Shown in pieces: positions 4,111-42,550 of a stretch of 64,000 nucleotides of DNA. How positions within the stretch are numbered: the first letter of the stretch is position 1; every line of letters begins with the position of its first letter. Source of the DNA: Nitrososphaeria archaeon. Lineage in GTDB: Archaea; Thermoproteota; Nitrososphaeria; JACIWG01. Position numbers and translations under genes: made by a program. The DNA lies in assembly GCA_050011875.1 (NCBI GenBank), contig JBEKIG010000002.1, positions 1-64,000 of the forward strand, given 5' to 3'. The notes under the pieces were generated by a model. It saw only the letters and a program-made list of their open reading frames with translations, was not told where the DNA came from and did not search any database.

Positions 4111-4367
4111 AAACAGATGTATTGTTTAATTAAATTTACATCAACGATGTAGCTATATCGGTCCGATCAGGTTCTCCTAAAAAACCATATGAAATATCAG
4201 TTGAAAATACTGTGAAATGAAAACAGCTAAGACTTGACCTAACTCTAGGTTGGAAAGAAACAGGCAGAGAAAAAGTTTAGCGTTGGGCTGTTGTTGCAGA
4301 GATCAAACGAGTTTGGACTGAAGGAGCTAAAAGCGCGCGTGAAGTCACTCATCTGCCTTAATCGCGT

Positions 4368-5258
4368 TTATTCCCTGAAAATCAGACGGGAAAGCTTCTG
4401 GGGTCTGATCCTTTGATAGACGAACCTAACAAACAAGTAAATGATGAATACGATGCTTGTTATGAAGAAGCTCACCGGGTATGGCTCATAAAAAGAAACA
4501 AAGAGCCCCAACCACGTTGCTATCAGAGCAATGGCTACAGAAATAATTATGACCTGCTGCGGTCGTTTTGCCAATTGATGAGCGGTCGCAGCTGGCGTCA
4601 CCATCAGTGAGAAGATGAGAAGGACGCCAACAACTTGGACCGCAATCGACGTCGCGACTGCGACCAGGAGCATGAAAATTATGTCGAGCAAAAGTATGGG
4701 CATTCCTTTTGCTTCTGCCACGTCTTCATCGAGCGATGCGAACAGGAGCGGTCGATATACGGCCGCGACGAGAGCCAGAATTATCAAACTGGCAACGATG
4801 GTCAGAAGGACGTCGTTGAAGCTGATGCCAAGTATTTCTCCGAACAAGATGGAGTACGCCTCGGTTGCATAGCCGGTGTATAGGCTGATGAACAACACGC
4901 CTATGCCGAGCATGAATGCTAGAACTGTTCCGATCTGGACGTCACGATGGGCTGAGTGCGGGCCAAGCACGGCTATCCCAAGTCCGCCGACGCTTGTGAA
5001 CAGGAGAAGACCGAAAACTGGGCTGATTCCGAATAATACGGCCCCCGCTGCCCCAGAGAAACCGATGTGAGAGAGGGCGTGCGCTGCGAATGACGAACGA
5101 CGCAACACAACGAAAAAGCCTACAATGCCTGCGATGATTGCGACTACTGTTCCTGCCTCGAAGGCATGCTGCATGAACTGGTAATGGAATATCTGCTGCA
5201 GGTCGGCCAAAAGATTGATGTTGAAGGACATTCTATTGATCACCGTGGACATCTTCAA
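4368..5258 (-). CDS. znuB: Zn/Mn ABC transporter permease (start may be a few codons downstream)
   Basis: AHALSH..F.GAA, LFGEILG, VGVLL...L..PAATA motifs of ABC-3 permeases. Confidence 0.85.
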   Translation of the reverse strand: MKMSTVINRMSFNINLLADLQQIFHYQFMQHAFEAGTVVAIIAGIVGFFVVLRRSSFAAHALSHIGFSGAAGAVLFGISPVFGLLLFTSVGGLGIAVLGPHSAHRDVQIGTVLAFMLGIGVLFISLYTGYATEAYSILFGEILGISFNDVLLTIVASLIILALVAAVYRPLLFASLDEDVAEAKGMPILLLDIIFMLLVAVATSIAVQVVGVLLIFSLMVTPAATAHQLAKRPQQVIIISVAIALIATWLGLFVSFYEPYPVSFFITSIVFIIYLFVRFVYQRIRPQKLSRLIFRE

Positions 5259-6024
5259 TACCTATGACTGCAATGTTGCCCTTAGAGTCTCGAAGGACCT
5301 CAACGTGAACTCCGAATAATGCCGTGAGACACTCTGACGTCAGGACCTCTTGCGGTGTCCCGGTCGCAACCTTGCCGTTGGCTATGTATACAACCTTATC
5401 GAGAAACGGCAGAAGAGGGTTGATGTTATGGGCTATCAGCAGTGCAGTCACGTTACGCGATCGAACCACACCACTTATAAGTTGCACCAATTCTTTCTCG
5501 CGCCTCATGTCAAGATTCGACAACGGCTCATCGAGCAACAGTACGGCAGGGTTGCTTACTAGCGCCTCGGCCAGAAATATCCTCTGCAGTTCTCCGCCTG
5601 ATAACACGCCGAGGGAGCGATGGGCCAAATCTGTCGCACCAACGGCTTCCAGTACGTCGAGAGCGGCTTTGCGGTCATTTTGGGAGTATAGGCCCAGACC
5701 CCATTGTTTGCCAGAAATTCCCAGTCGCACAAGTTCAAGGGACTCTACATTTGTTTCACGGTCGATTATGTGACGCTGAGGCACGTAACCAATCTGCGGA
5801 TTGCCACGCTTGGGCGCTGCATTGAATATCTTGATCGTGCCGCTGACGGGTTGCTGCAACCCAAGGAGCAAACGAAACAGAGTTGTCTTGCCCGCTCCGT
5901 TAGGGCCGATAACCGCTACAAACTCGCCGCGATCGATGGTGAAACTGGCGTCTCGCCAAACTATGTTGTCCGGGTAGCCGGCAACCAGATTCTTGGAAGT
6001 GATGATCTCGGACTGTGTGCTCAT
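5233..6024 (-). CDS. znuC: Zn/Mn ABC transporter ATPase
   Basis: Walker A GPNGAGKTT, IGYVPQ, LSGGELQR, LLLDEP. Confidence 0.9.
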   Translation of the reverse strand: MSTQSEIITSKNLVAGYPDNIVWRDASFTIDRGEFVAVIGPNGAGKTTLFRLLLGLQQPVSGTIKIFNAAPKRGNPQIGYVPQRHIIDRETNVESLELVRLGISGKQWGLGLYSQNDRKAALDVLEAVGATDLAHRSLGVLSGGELQRIFLAEALVSNPAVLLLDEPLSNLDMRREKELVQLISGVVRSRNVTALLIAHNINPLLPFLDKVVYIANGKVATGTPQEVLTSECLTALFGVHVEVLRDSKGNIAVIGIEDVHGDQ

Positions 6025-6027
6025 TCG

Positions 6028-6969
6028 TTATTTCCCCAGGGCAAGTGCGTTTTGAAGAGCGAGTAACTGCGAATTCATCCAGTCTTGGAACGTGGCATCC
6101 GGCGGCTGTATGGTCTCCGTCACTCCAACGATCTGAATGCCTTGTTGAGAGGCTTGTGCCCTGATGTTCTGCGTAAGCGGCGTCACCGTTTGTTCATTGT
6201 ATACCAGCACCGTAATAGTTTCATTCTGAATAAGCTGCTGGAACTGCACGATGCTCTGTGCCGGGGGGTCGTTTCCTTCGGAGACGGCTTCCATGAATGC
6301 AGGAGGGGAGACGAGGTCGAGACCGGTGGCGTTCGCCAGATACACGAAGATGCTCTCTGTAGATGCTACTTTCGCGCCTCCGAACTGTTGCTTTATCTCG
6401 TCGATTCGCGCGTTGTATACCCCAAGCGATGCGTTCAATGCAACATACTGCTGTTTATAGTATGCAGCGTTGGTCGGATCTACGGAAACAAGGTCTTGGT
6501 ACATCGCCTTCACTGTATCATTCACATAATAAGGACTGTACCAAAAGTGAGGGTTGACACCAACTGACTGGTTGATGAGTTCTTGCACGTTCAATACTAT
6601 TTGATGTGGAGTACTGCTTGCTGCAATAAGCTTTAGAGCCCATTCATCATACCCGGCTCCGTTGACGATTACTAAGCTGGCATTTGCAATTGCTTTGGCG
6701 TCAGTACTATTGCTTTCGTATTCGTGAGGATCAGCATTTGGGTCTGAAACGATGCTCAGCACATTGATATGTGTTCCACCGAGCTGGGATATCAGACTGC
6801 CCCAGAAATTTTCAGCGGCGACTACTTGTATCTTTGAATTAGAATTTGAACTGGAACTTGTAGTAGTACCAGAAGTTGTATGTTTTGAGAGATACAAGCT
6901 TGCGAAGGCTCCTGCCACAATTAACACAAACAAAACTGTTGCAGTAATTACATAGGTAGTTTTCAGCAT
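6028..6969 (-). CDS. znuA: Zn/Mn ABC transporter substrate-binding protein
   Basis: DPHEYE and NPHFW metal-binding motifs, N-terminal anchor. Confidence 0.85.
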   Translation of the reverse strand: MLKTTYVITATVLFVLIVAGAFASLYLSKHTTSGTTTSSSSNSNSKIQVVAAENFWGSLISQLGGTHINVLSIVSDPNADPHEYESNSTDAKAIANASLVIVNGAGYDEWALKLIAASSTPHQIVLNVQELINQSVGVNPHFWYSPYYVNDTVKAMYQDLVSVDPTNAAYYKQQYVALNASLGVYNARIDEIKQQFGGAKVASTESIFVYLANATGLDLVSPPAFMEAVSEGNDPPAQSIVQFQQLIQNETITVLVYNEQTVTPLTQNIRAQASQQGIQIVGVTETIQPPDATFQDWMNSQLLALQNALALGK

Positions 6970-6990
6970 ACACTTAACCTTTCTAGTTAA

Positions 6991-7022
6991 AGTTATTAAG
7001 TTTTACTAATTTTTTAATAACT
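6991..7022. promoter_or_regulatory. Inverted repeat AGTTATTAA-N14-TTAATAACT, candidate NikR-family operator
   Basis: Perfect 9-bp arms with a 14-nt spacer immediately upstream of znuA; NikR-family gene is divergent. Confidence 0.5.
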
Positions 7023-7313
7023 ATCTTTTCCACCTCACACCACCAACACCTACAAAGAGCAGCAGACTGCTCTGTTGGATAAATGGAATTTCGAGTTTGC
7101 GAAAAGTAACGATCAACTCCATAAAGGAGAATAAACCTTGGAGACATTACGATTATCCCGTTTTCCAGCGAAACTTGTCAGCAATGTAGAAAATATGCTC
7201 ATATCGACATCACATATTTATTAGGATGAAAGCTGGAAAATAAATACTATAAAAAGTGTTTGAATAGATATTAATAATATATAATATATATTAATGAATA
7301 TTGAGGTTATGAT

Positions 7314-7715
7314 ATGAGCATAATAAGCATTTCATTACCTAAAGAACTGCTTAAAGAACTAGACTCCGTACTTGGTGAAGAACGGAATTCGACAAGGTCC
7401 AAGGTGCTTAGACAGGCTCTTCGAATGTATATCTCTGAATATAAAGAACTCGACAAGATTAAAGGCGATACGGTTGCAACGATAACCGTTCTATATGAGA
7501 AGATAGAAAAAAATGCAGAATTATTCCGACTGCAACATGAATTTAGTGACATGATCACAGCATACCTGCATTCGCATTTAACAGAGATGAGCTGCCTTGA
7601 GGTTATGGTTATAAAAGGCTCCTCTACGCGTTTAAAGAGTCTTGTAGACGGTCTCAAAGCGAATAAGCGCGTGAAAAAGATAAAAATTTCTATAATGACA
7701 ACAGGCGAATGTTAG
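7314..7715 (+). CDS. nikR: NikR-family ribbon-helix-helix metalloregulator
   Basis: IISISLP..LL.ELD RHH; metal ligands QH...LHSH....CLEV. Confidence 0.85.
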   Translation: MSIISISLPKELLKELDSVLGEERNSTRSKVLRQALRMYISEYKELDKIKGDTVATITVLYEKIEKNAELFRLQHEFSDMITAYLHSHLTEMSCLEVMVIKGSSTRLKSLVDGLKANKRVKKIKISIMTTGEC

Positions 7716-7758
7716 GTATGCTTAATTAAATTCAAGTTCACAACCATTAAGGGAGAAA

Positions 7759-8046
7759 GTGGAAGATGAGCTTCACCTGCCTTCCGATTCAAACATCTGC
7801 CTGAACTGTATCTTTTTTAAGAAGGATTCAATGTTCTGCACAAAGGGAGAGCTTGAGTCTTACCGAGCTTTTACAAAGATGGGTTGTCAATTCCACTTCC
7901 AAGGATCGTATATGATCCGCATAAGTCGACGATTCTACGATAAAACCGTTAAAGCAAGGAGAGAGCAATATCTTATAACGAAAACAGTTTCAATGTTTAA
8001 AGCTCAAAAGATAGTTAAAATTTTGCAAGACGGTAAAGAAGGGTAA
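7759..8046 (+). CDS. Hypothetical protein with Cys cluster
   Basis: Open 95-aa frame with CxxC...C...C; no recognised family. Confidence 0.35.
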   Translation: MEDELHLPSDSNICLNCIFFKKDSMFCTKGELESYRAFTKMGCQFHFQGSYMIRISRRFYDKTVKARREQYLITKTVSMFKAQKIVKILQDGKEG

Positions 8047-8388
8047 TTTCTTATACAGATAGCCAGGGGTAAATGTTCAAAAGATGGAAGGAAATGGGGT
8101 TAACCTCAAAATGCGTTAAGCAAAATGCTATCACAGTCAACATTCTTTCTAGCTATTAACCTACACCAAATCTTATGAAGATTAAATTTTCAGATCTTGA
8201 GACTTAATATCCTCTAGTTATTATTTCTTATAGCTTTTTTCATTTTATTTAGGTCGGCCAGCGTACGATTTATAAAAAATGCTGAAAAATCCGAAAAGTT
8301 TAAACTATCTCGAGTTAAATTTAACTTTGTGATAAATGAAGGCGCTGGAAGGACTTTAGTTAGCACGGCAAAAAAGGATTGATCCAAG

Positions 8389-8559
8389 ATGAAGAGAATG
8401 GTCGAGCCAAGAAAAAACTACCTGCAAAGATTTAACCGTCTGCTTGCAGTGCCGACGTTGGTTTTGTTCATAATCTTAACTATATCAGGATATGGCATAA
8501 CTAACTTGAATACGGTAACTAATTGTGCTGATGCAGTACATGGTGGTGTGAGAAGTTGA
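8389..8559 (+). CDS. Small membrane protein, possibly a truncated remnant
   Basis: MKRMVEPRKNYLQRFNRLLAVPTLVLFIILTISGYGIT...; stop overlaps the start of the next gene. Confidence 0.4.
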   Translation: MKRMVEPRKNYLQRFNRLLAVPTLVLFIILTISGYGITNLNTVTNCADAVHGGVRS

Positions 8560-9724
8560 AGAATTATAAAGCGATTGTCTTAGCAGGTTTTATAGTGATA
8601 TCTGCCCTGCTTACCTTCATGCCAGCAATGAAGCAGGCTGATGCTCAAACAGACATTGTATTACGAATTTACGGTGCCGTAAACAACCCTTTGAACCTCA
8701 CGTACGATCAGCTGCTTTCTTTTCCCATGGTTTCAGAGGTGGCAAGGCTAAAGTGTGTCGCAGGATACCCTGACGTCACCTACAACTGGACTGGAATACC
8801 GCTTTTTTATCTGTTGACCCTAGCTCAGATTAAGCCTGACGCTGACAAGGTCGTTACGATAAGTGGTTTAGACGGCTTTTCTTCGGACCTCCCTGTCGAA
8901 TACGCTTTGGAACCTACTACCCAGACAGCCAAACCGGGCTCAATAGACTAGTCGTCCCAGGAATGTATGGCTACAAATGGGTCAGTGGGGTCGACGAGAT
9001 AAATGTAACGACGAATAATGCTCTAGGGCTCTATGAGAGCGATGGATACCCCGATGAAGCCCTTGTGCCTGACTATGGGCCCATATATGCGTTGGCTCCT
9101 CCGCTGCAAACGTTCAATGTAACTTACGCAAACAGAACGTTCGGAGTTGATTCATTCACAAATGCTTCAATGACAAACGTCGTTTTTGATCCTTCCCAGA
9201 AAAAAATGGATGTGAGCATGACCGTTTTGAATGGAACATCGAGTTTTGTGGACTTCATATTTGAGCAAGGCTTTTTAAAAGGGCCATACAACGTAACGAT
9301 AGACGAAAAACCAGCAAGCGCGATTGAAGCTGACACAAACACGACTTCATACCTCTACATAACTCTTGCCGAAGGCTTTCACACTGTAAGCATATCAGGC
9401 ACAGTGTTATTGTATCCTGAAATAATACTGTACTACCAAGCATCAACATATGTTGGAAAGAGCGTAACATTTGATGCAAGCAAATCTGTAGACATAGGAA
9501 AAATAGTCTCTTACGGTTGGAGCTTCGGCGACGGGTCAATCACAAACGGAACCACAGCGGCAGTGGTGTCGCATTCTTATGAAAAACAAGGAACGTACCA
9601 AGTGGAACTCGAAGTAACAAACAATGAAGGCTTAAGCAGTTTCAAGACGGTTACGATAACCGTTACAATCCCGCCTGGGAACATTTTCTTCATCCTCATA
9701 GTCATTTTAGCAACAATTAACTAA
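8556..9724 (+). pseudogene. Secreted molybdopterin-binding oxidoreductase (sulfite oxidase/MsrP-like) + PKD domain, split by deletion/frameshift
   Basis: First part has G.V..PL.LTY..L and the Mo-ligand Cys (LKCV). RLVVPGMYGYKWV begins in another frame at about 8945, and the usual intervening segment appears missing. PKD motif (FDASKS.D...Y.W.FGDG...H.Y...G.Y.V.L.VT) near the C-terminus. Confidence 0.7.
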
Positions 9725-9763
9725 CTTTTTGCTATTTAACCTATTTAGTAGTCAATATAGTGG

Positions 9764-9826
9764 TAATAGTAATAATAGTAATAATTTGTACAATTTATGA
9801 TAATAATAATTAATAATAATAATAAT
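9764..9826. repeat. Imperfect (AAT)n microsatellite
   Basis: taatagtaataatagtaataat...taataataattaataataataataat. Confidence 0.7.
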
Positions 9827-12392: not shown

Positions 12393-12529
12393 CGCGATTG
12401 TTGTAACATATCAAATATTATAATTTATTGATGATCGTGTAAAGTTATCGATTTTTATTGTGATGCTATAATTCTGTTTTGCAGCATTATCTTTTTATAT
12501 CATTACCTGACGCCTATTCTTGAGGGCTA

Positions 12530-12811
12530 ATGGTTTCAGTGAAAGTATTGTTTTTCGCAGTCTTTAGAGAGAAATATGGCTTAAAAGAGACAAATCTCGA
12601 GTTTGATGGTACATTGGAAGGTTTTTTAACGGCATTAGCTCTTAAGGTTAACAAAGCAATTGTCGAAGACATCTTTGACTCTGGGACTAAACAAATCAGA
12701 AGCAACTTGATTATAATGATAAATGGAAGAAATGTGAGGGATATAAAAGGAGAAATAAAGTTTAATGACAACGATGTTGTAGCAATTTTTCCTCCGATCG
12801 GTGGAGGCTAG
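12530..12811 (+). CDS. MoaD/SAMP ubiquitin-like sulfur carrier
   Basis: V.V.FFA.FRE...INGR...D.VAIFPPIGGG with C-terminal GG. Confidence 0.9.
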   Translation: MVSVKVLFFAVFREKYGLKETNLEFDGTLEGFLTALALKVNKAIVEDIFDSGTKQIRSNLIIMINGRNVRDIKGEIKFNDNDVVAIFPPIGGG

Positions 12812-12975
12812 CTCAAAGTTGTATTTTATACTTCTATTTTTTTCTTATCTTAACGTTTTTTTACACGTTGTTAGTTTTACAAGGTTAATTTAAAGCCTTA
12901 ATATATCTATAATTAAGGTTTATTCGAGGGGAATGATGCAGGAACTTCTTTTATTATTGTGGAGGTAGATTCAGA

Positions 12976-14622
12976 TTGTGGAAGATACTGTCCACGTTTT
13001 CCACTATCCTATCTAACTTATCCAAAAAGAAGGTCTTGCGCTCTTCTTTCGGTTTCTTCTCCGTTGCCTTCTTTCTTTTTTTTGTGATCATTCCGTCAAT
13101 TTATGTAGTGACCTACGTCCCATTAAATTGGCATGCTATAAGCCTAACGATATTCTCTAATCCTGAAAATACAAAGGAGGTTATTGACAGTTTGGAGGTT
13201 AGCATTGTTCTTGCCTTACTTGTTGCCTCAATTGACATCATAATAGGTATTCCTCTTGCTTTTTACCTTGTAAGAGGGAAGGGACGGGTTCCACAAATAA
13301 TGAATACAATAATAGAGATTCCAATTATAACGCCGACATCAGCTTTGGGTCTCTCCGTTGCTCTATTCTGGCCCGCTATAGCTGAAGGTCCCATCTCCCC
13401 TTTTATAATACTGATGTTGTTACACATTGCGTTTACTATTCCATATATGGTAAGAAGTGTCTCCGCAGCGTTAACTGACTTTGATATCTCATATGAGATG
13501 GCTTCAAAAACATTGGGTGCCCGTTCATTTACAGCGATAAGAACCATTACTCTACCTCTTGTAAAAGCTGGGATTTTGACTGGAACTATCCTTTCAATAG
13601 CTAGAAGTCTTAGTGAGACTGGCGCTACAACTATAGCGTTGACTATAATCAATGCCTTAGGAAAGGTAAACACAGCACCTACATTGATATATATTTGGCG
13701 ATCGCTTTCAGTCAATGATCCTGCATATCTCTATGCAGGCGCTTTTGTCAGTCTTTTATTAATTCTATTGTCATTTGTGCTGTTTTTTAGCGTTAAATTC
13801 TTCATTAGAAGATTCAAGCTTCCGTTGACTAAAGTGTACCTTCCTTTAGAGACAGAATTAAGTAAGAAGAAATGGGGTAACTCGAAAAATATCATTACAT
13901 GCATATTTTTTGTACTAATAGCATTCATTCCGGCTATCTATTCAATGTTCTATGGATTAGGAAACATTGGAATACTGGCTGAAAAGTTTACATTAATAGG
14001 TGACAGCATATTGTACTCTTTAATAGTTGCTTCAATAGTAACGATCATCGACTTACTATTAAGCATTCCTCTCGCTCTCTTTTTAGCTAGAGGTAATAGT
14101 AGGTTAAAAAATATAGTGGACTATCTAGTCGAGATCCCCATAGTATTCCCGACGATTGCTGTTGGAATATCTCTGAATCTATTCTGGGTAGGCCTTGTCT
14201 CAAAGTCAACAGGTTTTAATTTTAGTGCCCTTGTGCTAATAATTTTTGCCCATGTTGCAATAACATTTTCCTTTACAGTAAGAACTGTCGCCGATGCGAT
14301 GAATACATTAGATCAAAGCGTTGAAGAGGCGGCTAAGACATTGGGGGCGACACCTTTTAGCACTTTCTTTAAAGTCGTTTTCCCCCAGATAAAATCTTCC
14401 ATATTCGCTGGTGCGATATTTGCTTTTACAAGAAGTCTTGACGAAACCGGTGCTACACTGGCTGTTGCCCCTGGAGCGATAACCGCTTCTGTATTAATAG
14501 TGAACCTTGTTAACCAGAATATGTTAGCTGAGGCAGGTGCAGCGGCTTTAATGCTAACTACTATATCTTACATTATTCTTTTAATTATTAGGAAAGCAGG
14601 TGGAAAACATGGTCAAAGTTGA
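12976..14622 (+). CDS. ABC transporter fused double permease (oxyanion/Fe3+-type)
   Basis: Two EAA-type motifs (YEMASKTLGA, VEEAAKTLGA) and two R.L.ETGAT motifs. Confidence 0.85.
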   Translation: MWKILSTFSTILSNLSKKKVLRSSFGFFSVAFFLFFVIIPSIYVVTYVPLNWHAISLTIFSNPENTKEVIDSLEVSIVLALLVASIDIIIGIPLAFYLVRGKGRVPQIMNTIIEIPIITPTSALGLSVALFWPAIAEGPISPFIILMLLHIAFTIPYMVRSVSAALTDFDISYEMASKTLGARSFTAIRTITLPLVKAGILTGTILSIARSLSETGATTIALTIINALGKVNTAPTLIYIWRSLSVNDPAYLYAGAFVSLLLILLSFVLFFSVKFFIRRFKLPLTKVYLPLETELSKKKWGNSKNIITCIFFVLIAFIPAIYSMFYGLGNIGILAEKFTLIGDSILYSLIVASIVTIIDLLLSIPLALFLARGNSRLKNIVDYLVEIPIVFPTIAVGISLNLFWVGLVSKSTGFNFSALVLIIFAHVAITFSFTVRTVADAMNTLDQSVEEAAKTLGATPFSTFFKVVFPQIKSSIFAGAIFAFTRSLDETGATLAVAPGAITASVLIVNLVNQNMLAEAGAAALMLTTISYIILLIIRKAGGKHGQS

Positions 14623-33593: not shown

Positions 33594-36005
33594 TTAACTC
33601 TCGCTTTTCTTCCCTCCTTCTAGGAGGAATTGTGGGAATTTCGATAGTTTCTTAGCCATCTCACTGAGGCGTTTATCCACTTTGTAGTTTACAGTTTCTT
33701 CCTCAAATGTTCCATCCTTTTCCCTTACGCCAGCTCTGACACCTGCAAGGATTTCTATTCCCTCGTCGATTGTTTTAACTGAATAGATGTGGAATTTTCC
33801 ATCTTTGACAGCGTCAACTATCTCCTCTTTCAGCATTAAGTTTTGAACGTTACTTTCAGGTATCATCACACCCTGTTTTCCTGTGAAACCTTTAGCTTTG
33901 CAGACTTCAAAGAATCCCTCGATTTTTTCGTTTACTCCTCCTATAGCCTGAACTTGACCTTTCTGGTTAACTGATCCGGTAACAGCAATGTCCTGCCTAA
34001 TTGGCAACTCGGAGAGGGCGGATAGTATTGCATATAGTTCAGTACTTGAAGCGCTGTCACCTTCTACTCCTTCATAATTCTGTTCAAAGACGAGTCGTGT
34101 AGACAAACTAAGCGGATTATCTATAGCATATTTTCCGTTTAGGTAACCAGCTAAAATAAGGACTCCTTTTGTATGGATTGGGCCTCCCATGTTGGCTTCC
34201 CTTTCAATGTCAACAACCCCTTCCCGACCTAAACCTACAGAAGCCGTTACTCTTGATGGAATGCCGAAGTCGAAATCGCCGAGACTTATCACGGAAAGAC
34301 CATTAACCTGTCCAACACTCTCTGCTTCTGTATCGATAAGTAGTATGTTCCTTTTGATCATTTCCTGTATCTTCTCCTGGACAAGTTTTGAACGGTAGAC
34401 CCTCTCTTCAATTGCCTTTCTAACGTGAATTCCGGTTATAAAATCCGAATTTTCCTGTGCCGCGTAAAAGTTTGATTCACGTATAACATCAGCAACTTCA
34501 GCAAACCTTGTGGAAAGTTTTTGCTGATCTTCAGCAAGTCTTGAACTATATTCAATCAATTTGGCTAGACCTGTGCCGTTAAGATGTTTTAAATTTTCTT
34601 TCTGACAGAGTGCGCAGACAAAAGCTGCATATTTTTGCACGTTTTCTTCTGTCCTATCCATGGTTGAGTCGAAATCAGCTTTAACTTTAAAGAGCTCATT
34701 AAAGTCCATATCCAAGATATATAATTGTTGATAGATGTATGGGTCACCGATTAGAATAACTTTAACACTTAGAGGGATCGGTTGAGGTTTTAGACTCTTG
34801 GTTGTGAAGAAACCATAACTCTCCTCCACCTCCTCTATAACGACCTGTCCGTTTTTGAGGGCTCTTTTCAACCCATCGTATGAGAATGGGTTTACGAGCA
34901 GCTCTTCAACTGGAATAATCAGATATCCACCATTAGCCTTATGCAGTGATCCAGATCGAACCATAGTGAAATCTGTAGTTAAATAACCGAATTGGGCTTC
35001 TCTCTCTATTCTTCCGAAAATGTGTGGGTGAGTCGGGTTGCTCTCAAGAATCACCGGTGCACCCTTAAGCCCACTGTTATCTACCATCACATTTACTTCG
35101 TACTTTGTTGAGGCTGGTTCTCTCATCCATGGAAATTGTTGTTGAGCAGTCGCGCTTGGCTCCTTAATAAAATCTTCTAGCTTCTCTAAGATGTCATTCT
35201 GAAGTTCTTCAAGATATGCCACGATATCACTATATTCTTTGTATTTTTCCTTAAGATCGGCAATCAGGTGGCCTATAGCGTAGAGTGCTACTTCCTTATT
35301 CAGCTTTTTTATCTCCTCTAAGACTTTACCTTCAAGGTCTCTAAGCTGTATGAAAGCATTCCTTAGATCCGAATTTAGTTTCTCTCTTTTTTTATTAATT
35401 TCATCTCTAACTTGTTGGCTTAGAGAAAGAAACTCTTTATCGGTTAAAGCTCGCCCTTTAATAGTAGGTATTATTAACAGACCTACAGAGCTGCTTTCGA
35501 GGACGAAGCCTTCTTCCTGGGCTTTTTTGTTGAGTTCAGAAAAAAGATCGTCTCTTTCCTTTTCGATCGCCTGTATTGTGTTATCTCTTTTTGTGATATA
35601 GTCTTCGCTTTTAAAAGCTTTAGGGAGAACTCTTTTAGTCTGACTAATAAAATCCAAAACATCTTTTTGGAAAAGTTTTCCTTTTCCTGGTTGAAGCTTT
35701 ATTGCTTTTGGTTCATATTGATTGGAAAAGTTGTTCACATAGCACCAATCGAAGGGAATCGGTTCAGTTTTAGCCATGTCATCAAGGAAATTCTTGACAG
35801 CTGTCGTCCTGCCCGTTCCATGAAGGCCAGAAACATAGACGTTAAACCCACGATCTTTAATTCCAAGCCCAAATTTGAGAGCTCTGACAGCCCTTTCTTG
35901 GCCAATAATTTCTCTGAGTGGCGTTAACCCCTCTGTACTCTCACAACTCATTATACTAGGGTCACAAATCCTTCTTAATTTTTCTGCTGATAACTCATTA
36001 TTCAT
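33594..36005 (-). CDS. LonC-type Lon-family protease
   Basis: IIGQERA, G.LHKANGG, GQVNGLSV, EGDSASS.E...GGVNEKIEGF Ser-Lys dyad; Walker A degenerate (GTGRTT). Confidence 0.9.
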   Translation of the reverse strand: MNNELSAEKLRRICDPSIMSCESTEGLTPLREIIGQERAVRALKFGLGIKDRGFNVYVSGLHGTGRTTAVKNFLDDMAKTEPIPFDWCYVNNFSNQYEPKAIKLQPGKGKLFQKDVLDFISQTKRVLPKAFKSEDYITKRDNTIQAIEKERDDLFSELNKKAQEEGFVLESSSVGLLIIPTIKGRALTDKEFLSLSQQVRDEINKKREKLNSDLRNAFIQLRDLEGKVLEEIKKLNKEVALYAIGHLIADLKEKYKEYSDIVAYLEELQNDILEKLEDFIKEPSATAQQQFPWMREPASTKYEVNVMVDNSGLKGAPVILESNPTHPHIFGRIEREAQFGYLTTDFTMVRSGSLHKANGGYLIIPVEELLVNPFSYDGLKRALKNGQVVIEEVEESYGFFTTKSLKPQPIPLSVKVILIGDPYIYQQLYILDMDFNELFKVKADFDSTMDRTEENVQKYAAFVCALCQKENLKHLNGTGLAKLIEYSSRLAEDQQKLSTRFAEVADVIRESNFYAAQENSDFITGIHVRKAIEERVYRSKLVQEKIQEMIKRNILLIDTEAESVGQVNGLSVISLGDFDFGIPSRVTASVGLGREGVVDIEREANMGGPIHTKGVLILAGYLNGKYAIDNPLSLSTRLVFEQNYEGVEGDSASSTELYAILSALSELPIRQDIAVTGSVNQKGQVQAIGGVNEKIEGFFEVCKAKGFTGKQGVMIPESNVQNLMLKEEIVDAVKDGKFHIYSVKTIDEGIEILAGVRAGVREKDGTFEEETVNYKVDKRLSEMAKKLSKFPQFLLEGGKKSES

Positions 36006-36711
36006 TTAATAATTCACCTGTTTGCATGTGACATAGATTTTGTCGGAAATATATATCTTTAACTGAATGAATTTTTTTATTTACAGGCTAGCTGTTTTAT
36101 TATTTTTTATTTGTTTAAAGGTGATAAATAGAAAGAAATCATTTTTTTATCTTTTTCATAGTTTTAGCAAGTAAAATGACGTCTCAAATCGAACTTAACT
36201 TTCCTCTCATTTACTATTTTGTTTGCTTCATTAAGGGAGAATTTTTCAAGTGATAAACGTTACTTTTCTGTAGCAACTTTGATTTTAGCATTTCATATAT
36301 TTCCAGTCGATTGGCGAACCCCAGAATCGAAATCTGGTATAGGCAATAAGGAAAGTCGACGCACTTAACTAGAAAAGATAAGTGCCTGACGTTCTTATCA
36401 TTTTCAACCACTTTAATAAAATTATTACATTTCCAAGAAAAGAAATTAAGAAAATGTTCTGGTGTATAAAATGATGGATCCAAAATTTAATAATAGAACA
36501 ATAAATTCTAAAAAATCGGAAGTTTAAGAAGACACTTCGTTAAAAGATGAAGAAAAGAAAAAGAAAGCTAGGTTGAGAAGACGTGGACTTTATAGGAAAG
36601 CGCTTGCCGACTAGTATAGAAGTCAATAAAGCAGTCACTTTGAGAAAAAGTAAAAAAATTTAGAAAAATTCTTTCTCATATGAAATAAATGGGAAGAATA
36701 GTGTGTGAGAG

Positions 36712-36733
36712 GGTTCTGTTAACTTATTTGCAC
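36712..36733 (+). repeat. Left terminal inverted repeat GGTTCTGTTAACTTATTTGCAC
   Basis: Exact reverse complement of 41461-41482; GGTTCTGTT start is typical of IS6-family IRs; preceded by target duplication copy 36703-36711. Confidence 0.93.
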
Positions 36734-36817
36734 AGTGGCATTAAACTTCTTTAAAAGCCTTTCCGAAAAAATGCTTTCACATGGCATTCGGATAAACGTT
36801 ATATAAACGACAAGTGT

Positions 36818-37051
36818 GTGAGGATTCGAGGTGTATCTTTGGCTATAAAGATCACCTTCGCATTCCTATTGATTGGGAGTGTGGCAATAGCCACGTTCGG
36901 ATCAGTAGTAATGGCAGGGATAGCAAGTCTGTCGAAGCCAGTCAGCGAAGAAGTTTCAGCGACGGCTGGAGCTTACTCGTTTGATTTCATGGGGCTTGCT
37001 ATAATACTTGCCATAGCTATTGTGGCGGTTGCCTATCTTACCCACCGATAG
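36818..37051 (+). CDS. Small two-TM protein (transposon cargo); likely start TTG at 36839
   Basis: Two hydrophobic segments; TTATATAA at 36799 and GAGGTG at 36828 favour the start at 36839. Confidence 0.6.
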   Translation: MRIRGVSLAIKITFAFLLIGSVAIATFGSVVMAGIASLSKPVSEEVSATAGAYSFDFMGLAIILAIAIVAVAYLTHR

Positions 37052-37101
37052 CGATGTGAGGTGTAATAGACATGGCTCATACTGAGTGTGGGCAAATTGC
37101 A

Positions 37102-37129
37102 GGTAAGGGTGAGGCTATTCACCCTTACC
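37102..37129 (+). terminator. 11-bp stem-loop, followed by a T-tract
   Basis: GGTAAGGGTGA-ggctat-TCACCCTTACC, then a T-run at 37139-37145. Confidence 0.5.
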
Positions 37130-37264
37130 CCCTCCCACTTTTTTTCAAGTGGGGATAATACGTACGTATTTACGTAATTTGTAATGTTTAATAAACTTTT
37201 TTTAAAACTTGAGACGTTTTTGCCATAGGGTATACCCCTATATTTTATTTGCGGGGGCTTTGAA

Positions 37265-37319
37265 CATATCCTAAGAATATCTTTAAAGATATATATAGTG
37301 GTATATCCTTATGGATATG
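37265..37319 (+). promoter_or_regulatory. Transposase promoter with an array of ATATC(C)/(G)GATAT half-sites
   Basis: Perfect palindrome ATATCTTTAAAGATAT (37277-37292) over a TTTAAA box; ATATCC at 37266 and 37303, GGATAT at 37313. Confidence 0.6.
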
Positions 37320-37320
37320 C

Positions 37321-38226
37321 GTGGGAAATATGATATGCAAATACTGTCTATCTGAATCGGTCAAACCAGCTGGTTCAATGGATGGAAGGAAACTTGTAAG
37401 ATGCAATGTATGTAATCGCAGATTCTTTGAAAATGATAAACTTCCAAAGATGAGAAGTAAAAAATATGTTATAGTATCAGCTATTTCCATGTATTTTGAT
37501 GGTCTTTCAGTTAGGAAGACCTCGAGACAATTAGAAAGCATCTTTGGAGAGAAGGTAAGCCAAGTAACTATCTGGAAGTGGGTTCAAAAATACTCGAAGA
37601 TTGTAAGCGAATATGTTAGGACGTTAACCCCTAACCTTTCAGGTAAATGGCATCATGACGAAACAGTAATTAGTTGCGATGGAAGAAACCAGTGGTTCTG
37701 GGAGATGATAGACGAAGACACAAAGTTTTTAGTGGCGTCCCACATATCACAAGACAGAACAATCGAAGATACAGTTGAAGTATTCTCGAAAGCTATGGAG
37801 ATGGCAAAGCAGAGACCTAACGTCCTATTCGTTGACGGTTCACACGCCTACGATAGAGCCTTCAATAAAGTCTTCTACACAAGATACAAGGCAAACAAGG
37901 TTGAATTAGTTAAGAAAGTTGGGATAAGAGCAAGGGAGACAAATAACATAGTTGAAAGACTACATGAGACACTGAAGGAAAGAACAAAGATAATGCGTGG
38001 ATTCAAAAACCAAGATTCAGCAAAGCTAATACTGGAAGGATATGTAGTAAACTATAATTTCGCAAGACCACACCTAACCCTTAAAGGGAAAACACCAGCC
38101 GAAGCAAGCGGAATAGAAGTTAAAGGATGGAAACAGCTAATCGAAAACGCAATTCAATCCGAGAATATAGGGGCGCAACCTCAAACACAGAGAAAAGCAG
38201 TCGAAGTTATGCAGGTGGTTCGATGA
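37321..38226 (+). CDS. IS6-family DDE transposase with N-terminal zinc ribbon and HTH (start probably ATG 37330)
   Basis: CxxC...CxxC, GLSVRK...VS..TIWKWV, WHHDET, FVDG..AY, NN.VER.H..LK.R, GFK. Confidence 0.93.
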   Translation: MGNMICKYCLSESVKPAGSMDGRKLVRCNVCNRRFFENDKLPKMRSKKYVIVSAISMYFDGLSVRKTSRQLESIFGEKVSQVTIWKWVQKYSKIVSEYVRTLTPNLSGKWHHDETVISCDGRNQWFWEMIDEDTKFLVASHISQDRTIEDTVEVFSKAMEMAKQRPNVLFVDGSHAYDRAFNKVFYTRYKANKVELVKKVGIRARETNNIVERLHETLKERTKIMRGFKNQDSAKLILEGYVVNYNFARPHLTLKGKTPAEASGIEVKGWKQLIENAIQSENIGAQPQTQRKAVEVMQVVR

Positions 38227-38399
38227 AAAAAGCCCTTGTTGCGCTACCAGATCAAGTGTGGGACATTATAGACTCAAAGCTAAAAGGCAAACTTGGGGAG
38301 GGACACTCGGACATAATAAGAACAATCGTGATAGCCTACCTTTCAGAGCAAGGATATTTAAGCGAAGGTGGAAAAAATGCCGAAGAAAGAAAAGACTAA
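38223..38399 (+). CDS. CopG/ribbon-helix-helix protein
   Basis: True start is probably ATG 38223, overlapping the transposase stop (ATGA): MKKALVALPDQVWDIIDSKLKGKLGEGHSDIIRTIVIAYL, beta-alpha-alpha pattern. Confidence 0.75.
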   Translation: MKKALVALPDQVWDIIDSKLKGKLGEGHSDIIRTIVIAYLSEQGYLSEGGKNAEERKD

Positions 38400-38532
38400 A
38401 ACAAAGACCAAAGACGATGAAGTTGACATACTGGACACCATGATAACGTCATTAGCAGAGCTACTGGAAGAGAAAGGTGTCATAACTCAAGAAGAATGGG
38501 AAAAGAAAATCAAAAAGAATCTTAGAGGTTAG
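38377..38532 (+). CDS. 51-aa protein with SHOCT-like motif
   Basis: Manual translation MPKKEKTKTKTKDDEVDILDTMITSLAELLEEKGVITQEEWEKKIKKNLRG; AGGTG SD-like site upstream; overlaps the RHH gene end. Confidence 0.65.
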   Translation: MPKKEKTKTKTKDDEVDILDTMITSLAELLEEKGVITQEEWEKKIKKNLRG

Positions 38533-38567
38533 AAAAGAATAAAAAGAGTCTCTATCCTAAAATATAT

Positions 38568-38683
38568 GGTTTGAGGGGTTAGCGGAACGAGCATGATTAC
38601 AGGTTTATACCCTCATGAGTGCTTGCACACTCATGTCGCCACGTTTCATGCAAGCCTAACCCGTTAACCTTTCCTCCCAAATC
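38568..38683 (+). ncRNA. Candidate structured RNA (nested multi-stem) inside the transposon
   Basis: Four nested helices; G.U wobbles favour the + strand. Confidence 0.45.
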
Positions 38684-40029
38684 TATTTTTTCTCCTCTTT
38701 GCTAGATTGCTGTTCTATAACAGGTTTCTCCCACGCCTCAAATCCTACTCCTTGCTTGGGTTTAGTCTCCTCTAAATTTAATACGTTATCCGTTTTCTTA
38801 GTGTTCCCGTTCCCTTCTTCTATTATGGTGGTTTCGTTATCAGTTCCTTGATTATAGATTCTTATAGGAATGTCCAGTAGCTGCAATTTCTCTCTGAACT
38901 CTGCAACCTTGACCTTAGGAAGTATGGTTTCTAGCTGTACACCGTTTGCCATAAGTAGGACTATAAACTGTTCTTCCTGCGTAAGACTTGAGACTTTGCT
39001 CTGTAACGTATACCATGTTTTCTTTAATAGAGATAAGAGTGGTTCGTAAAGCCATACTGCCATACCAAGTTTCCTATTCCGTGAAGACTTGAATAAGATC
39101 GTGTGTAACATTGAGTAAAGACGCCAGAGGAATAATTGGTTCTCATCCGCTGTTGCAACCCATAGAAATCGATCCTGTTGGAGAAAACTATTTCTCAGAG
39201 CTTCATTGCCAAGATGCTTCCGAATTTTAGCTAAGAAATCATCTCTTGCTTTCTGTTCATCTACTCCTAATTTCTCATAAAACCCTAGATAGCCAAATGC
39301 TCTTTGTGCTATTTCATCATCTGAAAGAGACTCACCAGCGTGCTCCACCAAAAAAGGAATATGGAAGAAAAAGTTGTCTTCAGGACTTACCGAATAAAGC
39401 TCTTGGAGTGGAAGTGTATCCTTTGCTTCTTCAACACCAACAAGAGTTGGAATCCATGTTTTGTTTGAATTTTTCTTAACTAAATTAAATGATTGGAGAA
39501 CTCTTAGCAAGTGCAAAGTTGTAGATGCTTTAAGCTTAATACCATTAGATATGTCGGTTAAACGTACAGGTTTTCCAATTTTCATTAAAAAGTTAAGTAC
39601 CAACTTCTGATTTGGTTTGAGATCAAAGGTCTTTTCAATTTTTAAATTTTCTTTTTCAAGGTCTTTTTCAATTTTTAAATTTTGACCCTTGTCTGGAATA
39701 TAGATGGTGATTCCTTCTTTGCTTTTCTTTATCTTCTCTTTCTGCTCGAATTTTTCATGCTCTTTCTTTTCCTCTCTGAGAGGTAGGGCTATACCATTGG
39801 CGATTGCCAATTTTGAGTTTATAATTTGGTTCCCTATATTACTTCTCTCAATATTCGTCTCAATGATTTGACCTCGGTCTTTAAGGTAACGCAAGATATT
39901 TGCTATTTTATGGGTGATGTCCTTTCTTCCTTTTCCTTCCATACCACCTGCGAAATGTTCATATAAGTTTGGTCGATTACAATCTGAGTGTTCTTTCAAA
40001 TATTGATAGACCTCAGCTTTATCAACCAA
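38683..40029 (-). CDS. Unknown 448-aa protein with two predicted winged-helix domains (transposon cargo)
   Basis: KIANILRYLKDRGQI and PVRLTDISNGIKLKASTTLHLLRVLQSFNLV..W..T..G wHTH patterns; unknown helical C-terminal domain. Confidence 0.75.
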   Translation of the reverse strand: MVDKAEVYQYLKEHSDCNRPNLYEHFAGGMEGKGRKDITHKIANILRYLKDRGQIIETNIERSNIGNQIINSKLAIANGIALPLREEKKEHEKFEQKEKIKKSKEGITIYIPDKGQNLKIEKDLEKENLKIEKTFDLKPNQKLVLNFLMKIGKPVRLTDISNGIKLKASTTLHLLRVLQSFNLVKKNSNKTWIPTLVGVEEAKDTLPLQELYSVSPEDNFFFHIPFLVEHAGESLSDDEIAQRAFGYLGFYEKLGVDEQKARDDFLAKIRKHLGNEALRNSFLQQDRFLWVATADENQLFLWRLYSMLHTILFKSSRNRKLGMAVWLYEPLLSLLKKTWYTLQSKVSSLTQEEQFIVLLMANGVQLETILPKVKVAEFREKLQLLDIPIRIYNQGTDNETTIIEEGNGNTKKTDNVLNLEETKPKQGVGFEAWEKPVIEQQSSKEEKK

Positions 40030-40031
40030 TG

Positions 40032-41300
40032 CTATTCAACCTCCCTAGTGACCATTCGTGAAACAACATGCCCTACTGGATTAACTACATCACATAGTCC
40101 TGCAACTCTATTGAGTATTGTACGGGTTCGGCTATCGGTAGGTTGATAGATGCCATCTTGACTTCGTGACACAAGACCAACTCTCATCCAAAGCGGTCCC
40201 ATCATTCTTTTACCAAATTCGTCTAGGTCAACATCCTTTACTCCATTCTTTAAGATTAAATCAATCAGTTGCGAGACCTTCGTACCATCGCCAAAGTCCT
40301 TACCAAGCTTTGACTGGAGTTCACCAAGCGTTGCAAGTGCACTTTCATTCTTTGGCAGGTACTTGCTTAACTTTGTACCCAAAAGTTTCTCGAGGTCTTC
40401 TATATACTTAGCTTGCCTATTGAAATAAAAAATATTATCGCCATGTCGCATTGTGATCAGAGAGGGATTCAGTCCACTAACCAAGTCCTCTAAAGTTCCA
40501 TATTCGACCAATTCATATGCAAGTTCTTTACTAACTAATGCAGGTACACTAGCGAGAGAACTCGGATTGCCCGTGGCTGGAAAAGTTGGTAAGATAAACA
40601 ATTTGTCGTCATATTCGCTGTAAAACGGCACTTTATTGTGTTGATGAAATGGTTCAATATTCATAACGCTAAAGATATTGACAGGTTTGATAACTTCTAG
40701 TAGATGATGGCTATTGAGATTATCCTGTACGGTAGAGGCTAAATCACGTCTAGACATCTTACGAGGGTTTGCATCGACTAACGCCATCGAGCCTATGGTC
40801 TGAGCCATAGCCTTCACATATGGACTTCTAAGCATCGATTCAGGGTTCATAAGCATAGCAAAGGTAGTTGAACTCACTTCAGGAAAAATTTTCACAAATT
40901 TTTGATTCTCTTCTGTATATATATAAATCTGCCCAAGTTCAATGGAACGTTGGAGTTTCAAAGTGACGAGTCCTTTAACTTCGGATCGTCTATCTTGGCG
41001 TTCTAAAATTGGAATACCTGTAATTCTCATATATGCCGTGGTGGTTTTTTCCAAGAAGTCATCCAAAGGAAGTACTCCGCCAAAACTTTCAAAGACTTCA
41101 GCAACAGCAATACCTAATTTTAAATTCAGGGCTCTGCGATAATTCACTTTAGTTTTCTCCAAGGCGTCTTTAGTCCCGATGTATGAAGTTGAAAGAACAG
41201 TTGTTCGCATGGCTCTTTGGCTGAAGTCTTCCTTATCCATGTCAAGTGCATTAGCTATCTTTTCAACTTCTTTCATGATCATTTGAAGTTTGTTATCCAT
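40032..41300 (-). CDS. Unknown 422-aa protein (transposon cargo)
   Basis: Long ORF with AAAGGT upstream; stop lies 2 nt before the next start; no recognisable catalytic motif. Confidence 0.75.
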   Translation of the reverse strand: MDNKLQMIMKEVEKIANALDMDKEDFSQRAMRTTVLSTSYIGTKDALEKTKVNYRRALNLKLGIAVAEVFESFGGVLPLDDFLEKTTTAYMRITGIPILERQDRRSEVKGLVTLKLQRSIELGQIYIYTEENQKFVKIFPEVSSTTFAMLMNPESMLRSPYVKAMAQTIGSMALVDANPRKMSRRDLASTVQDNLNSHHLLEVIKPVNIFSVMNIEPFHQHNKVPFYSEYDDKLFILPTFPATGNPSSLASVPALVSKELAYELVEYGTLEDLVSGLNPSLITMRHGDNIFYFNRQAKYIEDLEKLLGTKLSKYLPKNESALATLGELQSKLGKDFGDGTKVSQLIDLILKNGVKDVDLDEFGKRMMGPLWMRVGLVSRSQDGIYQPTDSRTRTILNRVAGLCDVVNPVGHVVSRMVTREVE

Positions 41301-41338
41301 CGTTATCTTTACCTTTAACCAACTATGGTTAGACTTGG

Positions 41339-41358
41339 CTAAATATAAACATATTTAG
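41339..41358 (-). promoter_or_regulatory. Palindrome CTAAATAT-aaac-ATATTTAG over the cargo-operon TATA box
   Basis: Perfect 8-bp arms; minus strand contains TTTATA about 40 nt upstream of ATG 41300. Confidence 0.55.
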
Positions 41359-41460
41359 TATTGTTTAGCCTTGTTCAACATCTAACCTCAAAATTGTGTA
41401 TACTCTAATTTTGAACCACCATATAATACTAAACCGTTAAAACCTTATAACACTCAAGTC

Positions 41461-41482
41461 GTGCAAATAAGTTAACAGAACC
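41461..41482 (-). repeat. Right terminal inverted repeat
   Basis: GTGCAAATAAGTTAACAGAACC, followed by target duplication copy GTGTGAGAG 41483-41491. Confidence 0.93.
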
Positions 41483-41526
41483 GTGTGAGAGTAAAACTTA
41501 TCAATAAGTCACTATAAGATAATATT

Positions 41527-41787
41527 ATGTCAGAGGTTAAGAAGACAGTAGTGGGCGAAATCGAACACTTCTATCCCAAGATAAATGTAGTTATTGTGAC
41601 TGTCAAAACCCCTTTGAAGGTTGGAGACAAAATAATAATAGAAGGTAAAACTACACATTTTGAGCAGATTGTAGATTCAATGCAGATCGAACATTCTAAC
41701 ATTAAGGAAGCGGAGCTGGGACAATCCATAGGCCTTAAAGTTGTTAATAAAGTAAAAGAAGGCGACACTGTCTTCAAATTAGATTAA
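41527..41787 (+). CDS. Translation elongation factor-like beta-barrel protein (U32 C-terminal-like)
   Basis: VG.I.HFY.KI.V......LKVGD.I.I.G.TT.F.Q.V.SMQI. Confidence 0.8.
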   Translation: MSEVKKTVVGEIEHFYPKINVVIVTVKTPLKVGDKIIIEGKTTHFEQIVDSMQIEHSNIKEAELGQSIGLKVVNKVKEGDTVFKLD

Positions 41788-41929
41788 TAAAAAGATCTAG
41801 GTTCACAAAGGTTCATTGCTATATATTTTAGATAATAAAAAATAGTTCAAAAATAAATACTCTTTTAAAGTGATAACAATTATTTAATAAATAATGGAAT
41901 ATCGTATATCGGAAATGGTGCTTTAATAC

Positions 41930-42550
41930 ATGTTTGACTTATCTGTGCTCCTGAAAATTATAATCGTTAGCGCTTCAGGAGCACTTGTACCAGGTCCTTT
42001 AACGGCATCGGCTACTACACTTGGCGTAAAAAATGGGTGGAAGGCTGGTTTAAGAATTGCATTTGGTCATACACTTGTTGAATTTCCTCTAGTTATTTCG
42101 ATAGCCTATGGACTTGAAACTATCTTTCAGATTCCATCAATCAAATTTTTCTTAGGATTAGTTGGTGGGTCATTTCTGTTATTTTTTGGTTGTCTAACAG
42201 TAAAAGATGCACTTTACGTTAGAAGCAGTGATTTTCAGAACACAAAATCCAAGCATAATTCTTCCCTATTCGTGGGCGTTATCTTAACATTATTTAATCC
42301 ATATTTTATCGCTTGGTGGCTAGGTGTAGGATCAACTCTTATGATGCAAGTGTTAACTTCAATAAGTCTATTTGTGGTCATTGTTTTTTATTTGGCTCAC
42401 GTGTGGTTGGATTACGTCTGGCTTATGTTTATTTCCACGGTTGGTTCAGCATCAAAAATAAATCTCAAACTCTATAAGATAATTTTGATAGTATTATCAA
42501 TTATAATATTCTATTTCGGAATAAATCTGATTACATCAACAATATTTTAA
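41930..42550 (+). CDS. LysE-family translocator
   Basis: SGAL.PGPL, G..AG...A.GH, NPYF..WW. Confidence 0.88.
   Translation: MFDLSVLLKIIIVSASGALVPGPLTASATTLGVKNGWKAGLRIAFGHTLVEFPLVISIAYGLETIFQIPSIKFFLGLVGGSFLLFFGCLTVKDALYVRSSDFQNTKSKHNSSLFVGVILTLFNPYFIAWWLGVGSTLMMQVLTSISLFVVIVFYLAHVWLDYVWLMFISTVGSASKINLKLYKIILIVLSIIIFYFGINLITSTIF

Follow-up and report, generated by a model that had tools for sequence, protein, structure and literature searches.

A rare pair of predicted winged-helix proteins carried as exchangeable cargo by an archaeal IS6-family transposon

We analyzed a stretch of 64,000 nucleotides from a Nitrososphaeria archaeon (NCBI GenBank assembly GCA_050011875.1, contig JBEKIG010000002.1, positions 1 to 64,000, hereafter the window), which contains a transposon of 4771 bp with an IS6-family DDE transposase and a pair of long open reading frames (ORFs), ORF-A and ORF-B, left unrecognized in a preliminary description made from the sequence alone. 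The genome is archaeal, as it contains a signal recognition particle RNA of archaeal type (101.7 bits vs. a cut-off of 96.5); a search of it for the AmoA family gave no match, but neither did the controls, which makes this result uninformative. Sequence comparisons indicate that ORF-A and ORF-B constitute a horizontally mobile two-gene module, which travels in this transposon as swappable passenger cargo and is not part of the transposition machinery. Among the roles considered for the pair, that of a DNA-binding, two-protein conflict or defence module ranks first, with a probability of about one in three, and a maintenance or regulatory role derived from a plasmid or virus is nearly as likely.

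The ORF-A/ORF-B pair and its homologues

ORF-A and ORF-B are separated by only two bases (40030-40031), both are read inward from the right end of the element, 160 nt inside of which ORF-A starts, and together they occupy 2618 bp, i.e. 55% of the transposon. The tight coupling, inward orientation and share of more than half of the element given in the preliminary description are thus accurate. Both are real genes rather than chance ORFs, since each has strong homologues: ORF-A has 10 besides itself, full-length and 40-57% identical (E-values from 1e-79 to 1e-151), and ORF-B has seven (E-values from 1e-41 to 1e-107). In both of the other loci of the close clade with DNA, namely a contig from the metagenome-assembled genome (MAG) of a member of Thermoplasmatales (G401; locus L004) and a metagenome contig of 2.8 kb (locus L005), the B gene directly follows the A gene, with a gap of 10 nt in the former and an overlap of 4 nt in the latter. 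Four further A homologues are found on contigs of the same size as a contig with a B homologue (11634, 10598, 3620, and 9835); this tally leaves out the remaining four A homologues. Scans of genome contigs and of metagenome contigs returned a single locus each, and a short B homologue (P0017) lies on a contig of 194 kb. The search with ORF-B scored 8000 candidates, the B proteins of L004 and L005 lie outside its matches, and its repetition with a profile added nothing. The preliminary description had proposed a conserved cargo operon, to be checked by whether homologues stay paired; they do so in the window, L004, and L005, and the homology to housekeeping proteins that it had named as a counterargument was sought and not found.

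The family is very small. A profile search of 1.84 billion representatives returned 17 proteins at E<=0.001, of which 12 pass E<=1e-10 and one, a repeat protein, is regarded as spurious. We also searched overlapping samples of genomes, comprising 401 from the phylum and 401 from the class of the window, 401 from the phylum and 197 from the class of the Thermoplasmatales MAG, and 37 from the class of genome G591. Family members were found only in the genome of the window (G000), in G401, and in G591, apart from a match of 62 residues with an internal stop in the phylum of the window. In G591 (locus L010) a distant A homologue (P0030) is followed by an overlapping gene for a protein of 524 amino acids (aa). 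Profile searches with A found no relative among viral contigs (IMG/VR), and tblastn searches with A found no match in plasmid and phage collections. This distribution points to a family that is rare and patchy and moves between archaeal lineages.

Predicted structures of the two proteins

ORF-A shows no match to Pfam, PADLOC, PHROGs or NCBIfam, and Pfam scans of all 20 members of the A alignment gave only chance matches to single members. The AlphaFold model calculated from this alignment (predicted local distance difference test, pLDDT, 82; predicted template modelling score 0.78) comprises helix-helix-helix-hairpin units at residues ~57-150, 157-237, ~255-295, and 337-409, connected by helical linkers, and on this basis we describe ORF-A as a predicted tandem winged-helix array. 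The residues most conserved across the wider family (Y161, K163, T168, P217, H219, V224, F226, and Y227) all fall within the 157-237 unit, in its first and third helices and in its wing. The protein is charge-neutral (isoelectric point 7.0). Comparison of the ORF-A profile with the PDB returned a single row (E-value 0.11), Foldseek searches with the model against the PDB and BFVD returned none at E<=0.001, and the best score in the ESM Atlas (0.81) is below the useful range; the lists of fold matches are dominated by generic winged helices. ORF-A and ORF-B show no similarity to each other in hhalign.

The AlphaFold model of ORF-B (pLDDT 69) reveals four regions: a first winged helix (residues 1-76, with secondary structures in the winged-helix order), a disordered Lys/Glu-rich linker (80-133), a second, strongly basic winged helix of MarR-like topology (133-208), and a C-terminal domain composed of helices and two hairpins (215-405). 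The C-terminal 190 residues are the best conserved part of the protein. All family and fold matches of ORF-B (in Pfam, PADLOC, PHROGs, NCBIfam, the PDB, and Foldseek) fall on the winged helix at 133-208, among them the PADLOC matches to CasR, Csa3, and CARF-HTH models (E-values from 0.009 to 1e-5). The C-terminal domain matched nothing in sequence or fold searches; it was modelled within the whole chain, so that we do not claim a new fold, and a search of the ESM Atlas with residues 210-410 gave no usable match. Prediction of a complex between A and B scored 0.00 in both runs, for which controls were not run, and is no evidence either way. At the level of the DNA, a 33-nt tandem duplication at 39623-39683 (28-nt copies, 86% alike) encodes a repeated Lys/Glu-rich stretch of the ORF-B linker. 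The models agree with the preliminary description, which had assigned two winged-helix-like segments and an undescribed helical C-terminal domain to the 448-aa protein and had recognized no motif in the 422-aa protein, apart from parts resembling winged helices.

An IS6-type element with exchanged cargo

The transposase of the element belongs to the IS6 family, according to its match to the NCBIfam model NF033587 (transpos_IS6; 143 bits, cut-off 125), and it also matches Pfam DDE_Tnp_IS240 (E-value 1.5e-19; 71 bits, cut-off 27). A search with this protein across 301 genomes of the same class gave matches at E<=1e-40 in 85 of them (a tally that takes in three flagged as unpublished); the closest matches, 50-70% identical, lie in six places. 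Three elements from these places, one in genome G905 and two in G976, were compared with that of the window, while G988, G953, and G1031 were left out. The sister transposases are 55-70% identical to that of the window. The G905 element (3926 bp) has ends nearly identical to those of the window element (3 mismatches), and the G976 elements (3634 and 2879 bp) have inverted ends of their own (25-38 nt). Target duplications are 8 bp long in G905 and in one of the G976 elements (G976a).

All four elements have a common core, comprising the transposase, an ORF of 52-58 aa overlapping its stop codon, and an ORF of 50-54 aa. Between the elements of the window and G905, similarity is confined to positions 37269-38536 and the ends. 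The rest of the G905 element carries a pair of genes for proteins of 374 and 335 aa, in the other strand orientation, and both G976 elements carry multi-pass membrane proteins and small hydrophobic ORFs. The assignment of ORF-A/ORF-B to passenger cargo follows from this comparison, because the sister elements keep the transposase and the two small ORFs but carry other genes.

According to excerpts of Varani et al. (2021, PMC7986276), IS6 members are 0.7-1.8 kb long, at most ~1.76 kb, and ISDsp3 is the only one with a passenger gene. The element of the window, with 4771 bp and at least six ORFs, exceeds this compact size and is therefore a passenger-carrying IS6 variant, not a plain insertion sequence. 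In excerpts of Krupovic et al. (2019, PMC6563490) thaumarchaeal IS-like transposons have one or two genes, and passenger-carrying transposons are stated to be undetected in archaea. The archaeal elements compared here, at least four in number, therefore constitute an unusual branch of the IS6 family that exchanges its cargo. A literature search found no description of the A-B pair or of cargo-swapping archaeal IS6 elements; the supplementary tables of PMC6563490 may list relevant copies. With their common core and exchanged cargo, these IS6-type elements are a simple vehicle for gene flow among archaea.

The insertion into the genome of the window is recent, as shown by the same-genus genome G802 (93-94% identical to the right flank), where the site is uninterrupted and a sequence related to the duplication is present once. 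The element is present in a single copy in its genome (2.64 Mb in 119 contigs) and has a gene for a Lon-like protease on one side and consecutive housekeeping genes (for NAD+ synthase and MobB) on the other. It is flanked by a 9-nt direct repeat, GTGTGAGAG, the last 8 nt of which, TGTGAGAG, are probably the true target duplication; a length of 8 bp agrees with the G905 element, where an 8-bp duplication is likewise accompanied by one additional base at this end. The stretch is present in three DNA runs from peat metagenomes, two of which may be its source and whose contigs revealed neither a joint across the element nor a variant.

Genomic context and possible function

The flanks of the pair are readable in three loci, i.e. 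the window, L004, and L010. In L004 the pair is preceded by genes for a TdeIII-type restriction enzyme, a type II methyltransferase (PADLOC E-value 1.7e-153), and a kinase-deaminase protein (PADLOC dCTPase, E-value 3.9e-99; NCBIfam anti-phage dCTP deaminase, E-value 1.3e-68, below the cut-off of the model), and it is followed by a NYN/zinc-ribbon gene, the start of which overlaps the stop codon of B, and by an IS5 transposase. In L010 the neighbours of the distant A homologue encode an aminopeptidase-like protein, a radical-SAM protein, a protein of repeated helices, and, at the end of the contig, a truncated DDE transposase. In all three loci a DDE transposase is found no more than ~0.5 kb away from the module or the operon to which it belongs, and those beside the homologues belong to other families: IS5 in L004 (NF033579, 142.8 bits) and DDE_Tnp_1/DUF772-like in L010. 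In L004 the pair is not enclosed by inverted ends.

Two of these loci have further features. The L004 island, at 4256-9805 and 12428-13015, also holds undescribed ORFs of 387 and 123 aa. The repeated-helix protein adjoining the distant A in L010 (3975-4715, 246 aa) matches Pfam CdiI_2 as a whole (E-value 7.2e-8), with no single stretch passing, and has weak PADLOC matches to LeoB, CARF_HEPN, and ZorA.

A role in the conflict between hosts and mobile elements ranks first because of the extreme patchiness of the family, its position in a cargo slot, the island in L004, and the in-operon NYN nuclease found there. Taken together, the findings fit a self-contained accessory module that moves horizontally, with products that bind nucleic acid and each other's partners and do not catalyze a reaction. 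ORF-B would bind DNA through its basic second winged helix and would probably repress its own promoter upstream of ORF-A, where we found an AT-rich TATA-like sequence TTTATATTT (41341-41349) and, between it and the ORF-A start, a palindrome TAACCAtagtTGGTTA (41316-41331). These two sequences are a candidate promoter and operator, and the palindrome is a candidate autoregulatory site for ORF-B. The charge-neutral ORF-A would act as a multi-winged-helix scaffold, and its putative contact with the C-terminal domain of ORF-B would create a nucleic-acid-recognition complex. Such a complex could recognize or occlude incoming DNA, in the sense of defence or exclusion, assisted where needed by a separately encoded nuclease, e.g. 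the product of the NYN gene that forms part of the operon at the Thermoplasmatales locus. In its most far-reaching form, which we consider doubtful, the proposal describes a new archaeal system against mobile elements made of winged-helix arrays alone, in which B recognizes and A scaffolds, leading to occlusion, silencing or hand-over to a nuclease that is encoded in trans or, like the NYN gene of the Thermoplasmatales locus, fused in cis, and which would pass from one archaeal phylum to another as plug-in cargo of a cargo-swapping IS6 family not described before. If the pair protects against viruses or plasmids, the mechanism would be one that works by binding alone.

Several observations weigh against a role in conflict or defence. 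The searches with A and B revealed no effector or enzymatic domain, although its absence is unproven, as the C-terminal domain of B was never searched alone. The preliminary description had suggested looking for homologues in defence islands, and this was confirmed for L004 only, i.e. for one of the three loci with readable flanks: the window element lies among the housekeeping genes named above, and the neighbours in L010 gave only weak PADLOC matches. The NYN gene is present in one of the three loci of the close clade. PADLOC-DB 2.0 has no model for A or B (the A proteins of the window, L004, and L010 all lack a match), and no listed RNA run contains the stretch. The partner of A in the distant clade (524 aa) has no similarity to B detectable in a single-sequence comparison, which is of low power. 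Finally, some of the genes that the sister elements carry as cargo encode membrane proteins of undescribed role, so the cargo slot is not demonstrably a defence slot.

Nearly as likely as defence, the pair could be a maintenance or regulatory module of a plasmid or virus, picked up by the transposon by chance. As such it might initiate replication or bind an origin through its winged helices, serve as an adaptor in partition, or be a pair of transcription factors specific to the element. Both proteins consist of winged-helix and helical domains only, and five contigs with homologues are 8.5-11.6 kb long, which would fit small replicons. The latter argument is weakened by L010, a chromosomal contig of 9.4 kb that ends inside an insertion sequence, so that sizes of ~10 kb may reflect assembly breaks. 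Winged-helix proteins of cryptic thaumarchaeal elements might initiate replication, according to excerpts of Krupovic et al. (2019, PMC6563490). Sequence searches of the PDB with A and B gave no match to Rep proteins. The negative searches of viral contigs and of plasmid and phage collections speak against this origin, as do the lack of a replicase, ParA-type ATPase or integrase gene beside the pair in the window, L004, and L010, and the lack of tandem direct repeats (iterons) in the non-coding parts of the transposon. Were the pair a replication or partition module, it would serve as a marker of an unseen group of archaeal replicons.

A role of A and B as adaptors of the kleisin/KITE or TFIIE/RPC62 type, which would plug into the SMC complex or RNA polymerase of the host and redirect it, is improbable. 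Winged helices of the scaffold type are often charge-neutral, as ORF-A is, and the best whole-chain Foldseek rows of ORF-A are to RPC62, a four-winged-helix subunit of RNA polymerase III (E-value 4.4e-3, probability 0.84), but the corresponding TM-score is 0.17 and the root-mean-square deviation 24 Å. We regard these structural ties, on which the adaptor readings depend, as being at the level of background. Moreover, no gene for an SMC-type ATPase is present in the transposon, in L004 (4-18 kb) or in L010, and neither protein has sequence similarity to the kleisin/KITE or TFIIE/RPC62 families.

The suggestion of the preliminary description that A and B are accessory proteins of the transposon (for target choice, regulation of transposition or handling of cointegrates) would agree with their location inside the inverted ends, reading inward from one of them, with their DNA-binding-type folds, and with the DDE transposase beside the pair in all loci with flanks, but it is largely excluded by the three sister elements, which have the same two small ORFs and lack A-B, and by the homologues in L004 and L010, which occur beside transposases of other families (the preliminary description had suggested checking whether they always accompany this one) and, in L004, outside any inverted ends. 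With conflict or defence as the preferred reading, what sets the A-B pair apart is the combination of extreme rarity, spread across lineages, and pairing of two proteins without a detected enzymatic part.

Other features of the elements

Coordinates of the features of the window element are listed in Table 1.

Table 1. Features of the transposon in the window
Feature	Position	Strand	Basis
Left target-site duplication copy, GTGTGAGAG	36703..36711	.	9-mer repeated outside the right end
Left terminal inverted repeat, GGTTCTGTTAACTTATTTGCAC	36712..36733	+	22 nt, 100% complementary to right end
Hydrophobic small ORF, 77 aa, variable slot upstream of transposase	36818..37051	+	ORF listing
IS6-family DDE transposase, 301 aa, Cys-rich N-terminus	37321..38226	+	NCBIfam NF033587 and Pfam DDE_Tnp_IS240
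58-aa ORF overlapping transposase stop, conserved core	38223..38399	+	Homologues in G905 and both G976 elements (tblastx)
54-aa ORF, third core gene	38368..38532	+	50-54-aa homologues in the corresponding position of the G905 and G976 elements
Long nested hairpin between converging core operon and ORF-B	38567..38679	.	RNA folding
ORF-B, 448 aa, TTG start	38683..40029	-	ORF listing
ORF-A, 422 aa, ATG start	40032..41300	-	ORF listing
ORF-A upstream region inside right end	41301..41460	-	Read directly from sequence
Right terminal inverted repeat	41461..41482	-	Perfect 22-nt partner of left end
Right target-site duplication copy, GTGTGAGAG	41483..41491	.	Matches left flank

The 77-aa ORF matched neither NCBIfam nor PADLOC, and nothing similar to the region 36734-37268 is present in the related elements. 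Scans of Pfam, NCBIfam, and PADLOC gave no family match for the 58-aa ORF, which by eye looks like a ribbon-helix-helix protein. The hairpin folds with -39.3 kcal/mol on the plus strand (z-score -3.87; one of 200 shuffled sequences folds as well) and has a z-score of -2.54 on the minus strand; it has no match in Rfam and may act as a terminator in both directions or represent a small structured RNA. Neither Rfam families nor tRNAs were found in the region 36000-42000. A scan for bacterial (sigma-70) promoters and terminators remained at the level of shuffled sequences, and its model is not applicable to archaea.

The 22-nt inverted repeat has two exact copies in the genome and one copy with three mismatches on another contig. 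The latter, at 7370-7391 of locus L032 (G000:C11:31369-31390), is solitary, lies ~300 nt from a 198-aa winged-helix ORF (7687-8283), and may be the remnant of an older element. The same genome encodes two more IS6-type transposases (G000:C2:73129-73884 and G000:C8:77332-78168), 32-34% identical to that of the window.

The sister elements exhibit some peculiarities of their own. The 2879-bp element of G976 (L046 7284-10162, G976:C1) has perfect ends of 25 nt and no matching target duplication, and its transposase frame has 276 aa, vs. 312 aa in the other G976 copy; recombination between copies may have produced it. The cargo of the G905 element (L044, G905:C1, 9140-11147) is a conserved pair of overlapping genes. 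Relatives of its 374-aa protein, 24-27% identical, are encoded on plasmids of Halobacterium hubeiense, Lysinibacillus irui, and Bacillus cereus, and another is found on the large element of Methanocaldococcus jannaschii. In the two records examined (L047 3899-6014 and L048 3914-5909) the gene is again followed by an overlapping second one, annotated as "hypothetical protein", and the Lysinibacillus copy adjoins genes for a DEAD/DEAH helicase, integrases, and a transposase. The G905 cargo is another two-gene module of undescribed role, common to archaea and bacteria.

Relation to known systems

With regulators of the MarR/IclR type ORF-B shares the winged helix of MarR topology at residues 133-208. 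MarR proteins are ~140-170 aa long, with dimerization helices around a single winged helix, whereas ORF-B, with 448 aa, is three times longer, comprises another winged helix at the N-terminus together with a disordered linker and a conserved, unmatched domain of 190 residues, and is always encoded after A.

In general design the pair resembles multi-winged-helix assemblies such as MukF-MukE, JetA-JetB (Wadjet), and RPC62/TFIIE, as these also comprise two co-encoded multi-winged-helix proteins without catalytic parts, and the kleisin/KITE and RPC62/TFIIE factors are among the tied best structural matches of ORF-A. The A-B pair differs from them in having no SMC or nuclease partner gene and no sequence similarity to them, and the structural scores are at background level.

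As a vehicle, the element resembles ISDsp3 and other IS6 members, as far as excerpts of the literature describe them, in that it passes the IS6 model and has short inverted repeats starting with GGTTCTGTT, a duplication of 8-9 bp, and one transposase gene; it differs in its length of 4771 bp, in carrying at least five additional ORFs, and in belonging to a set of elements that have three core genes in common and exchange their cargo. In its organization it is reminiscent of Tn7-like elements, which in excerpts of Benler et al. (2021, PMC8649781) combine a conserved transposition core with variable, patchy, and often multi-gene passenger modules. Unlike those, the element of the window relies on an IS6 DDE transposase without TnsABC/TniQ, resides in an archaeal host, and carries a far smaller cargo, for which a role is only proposed.

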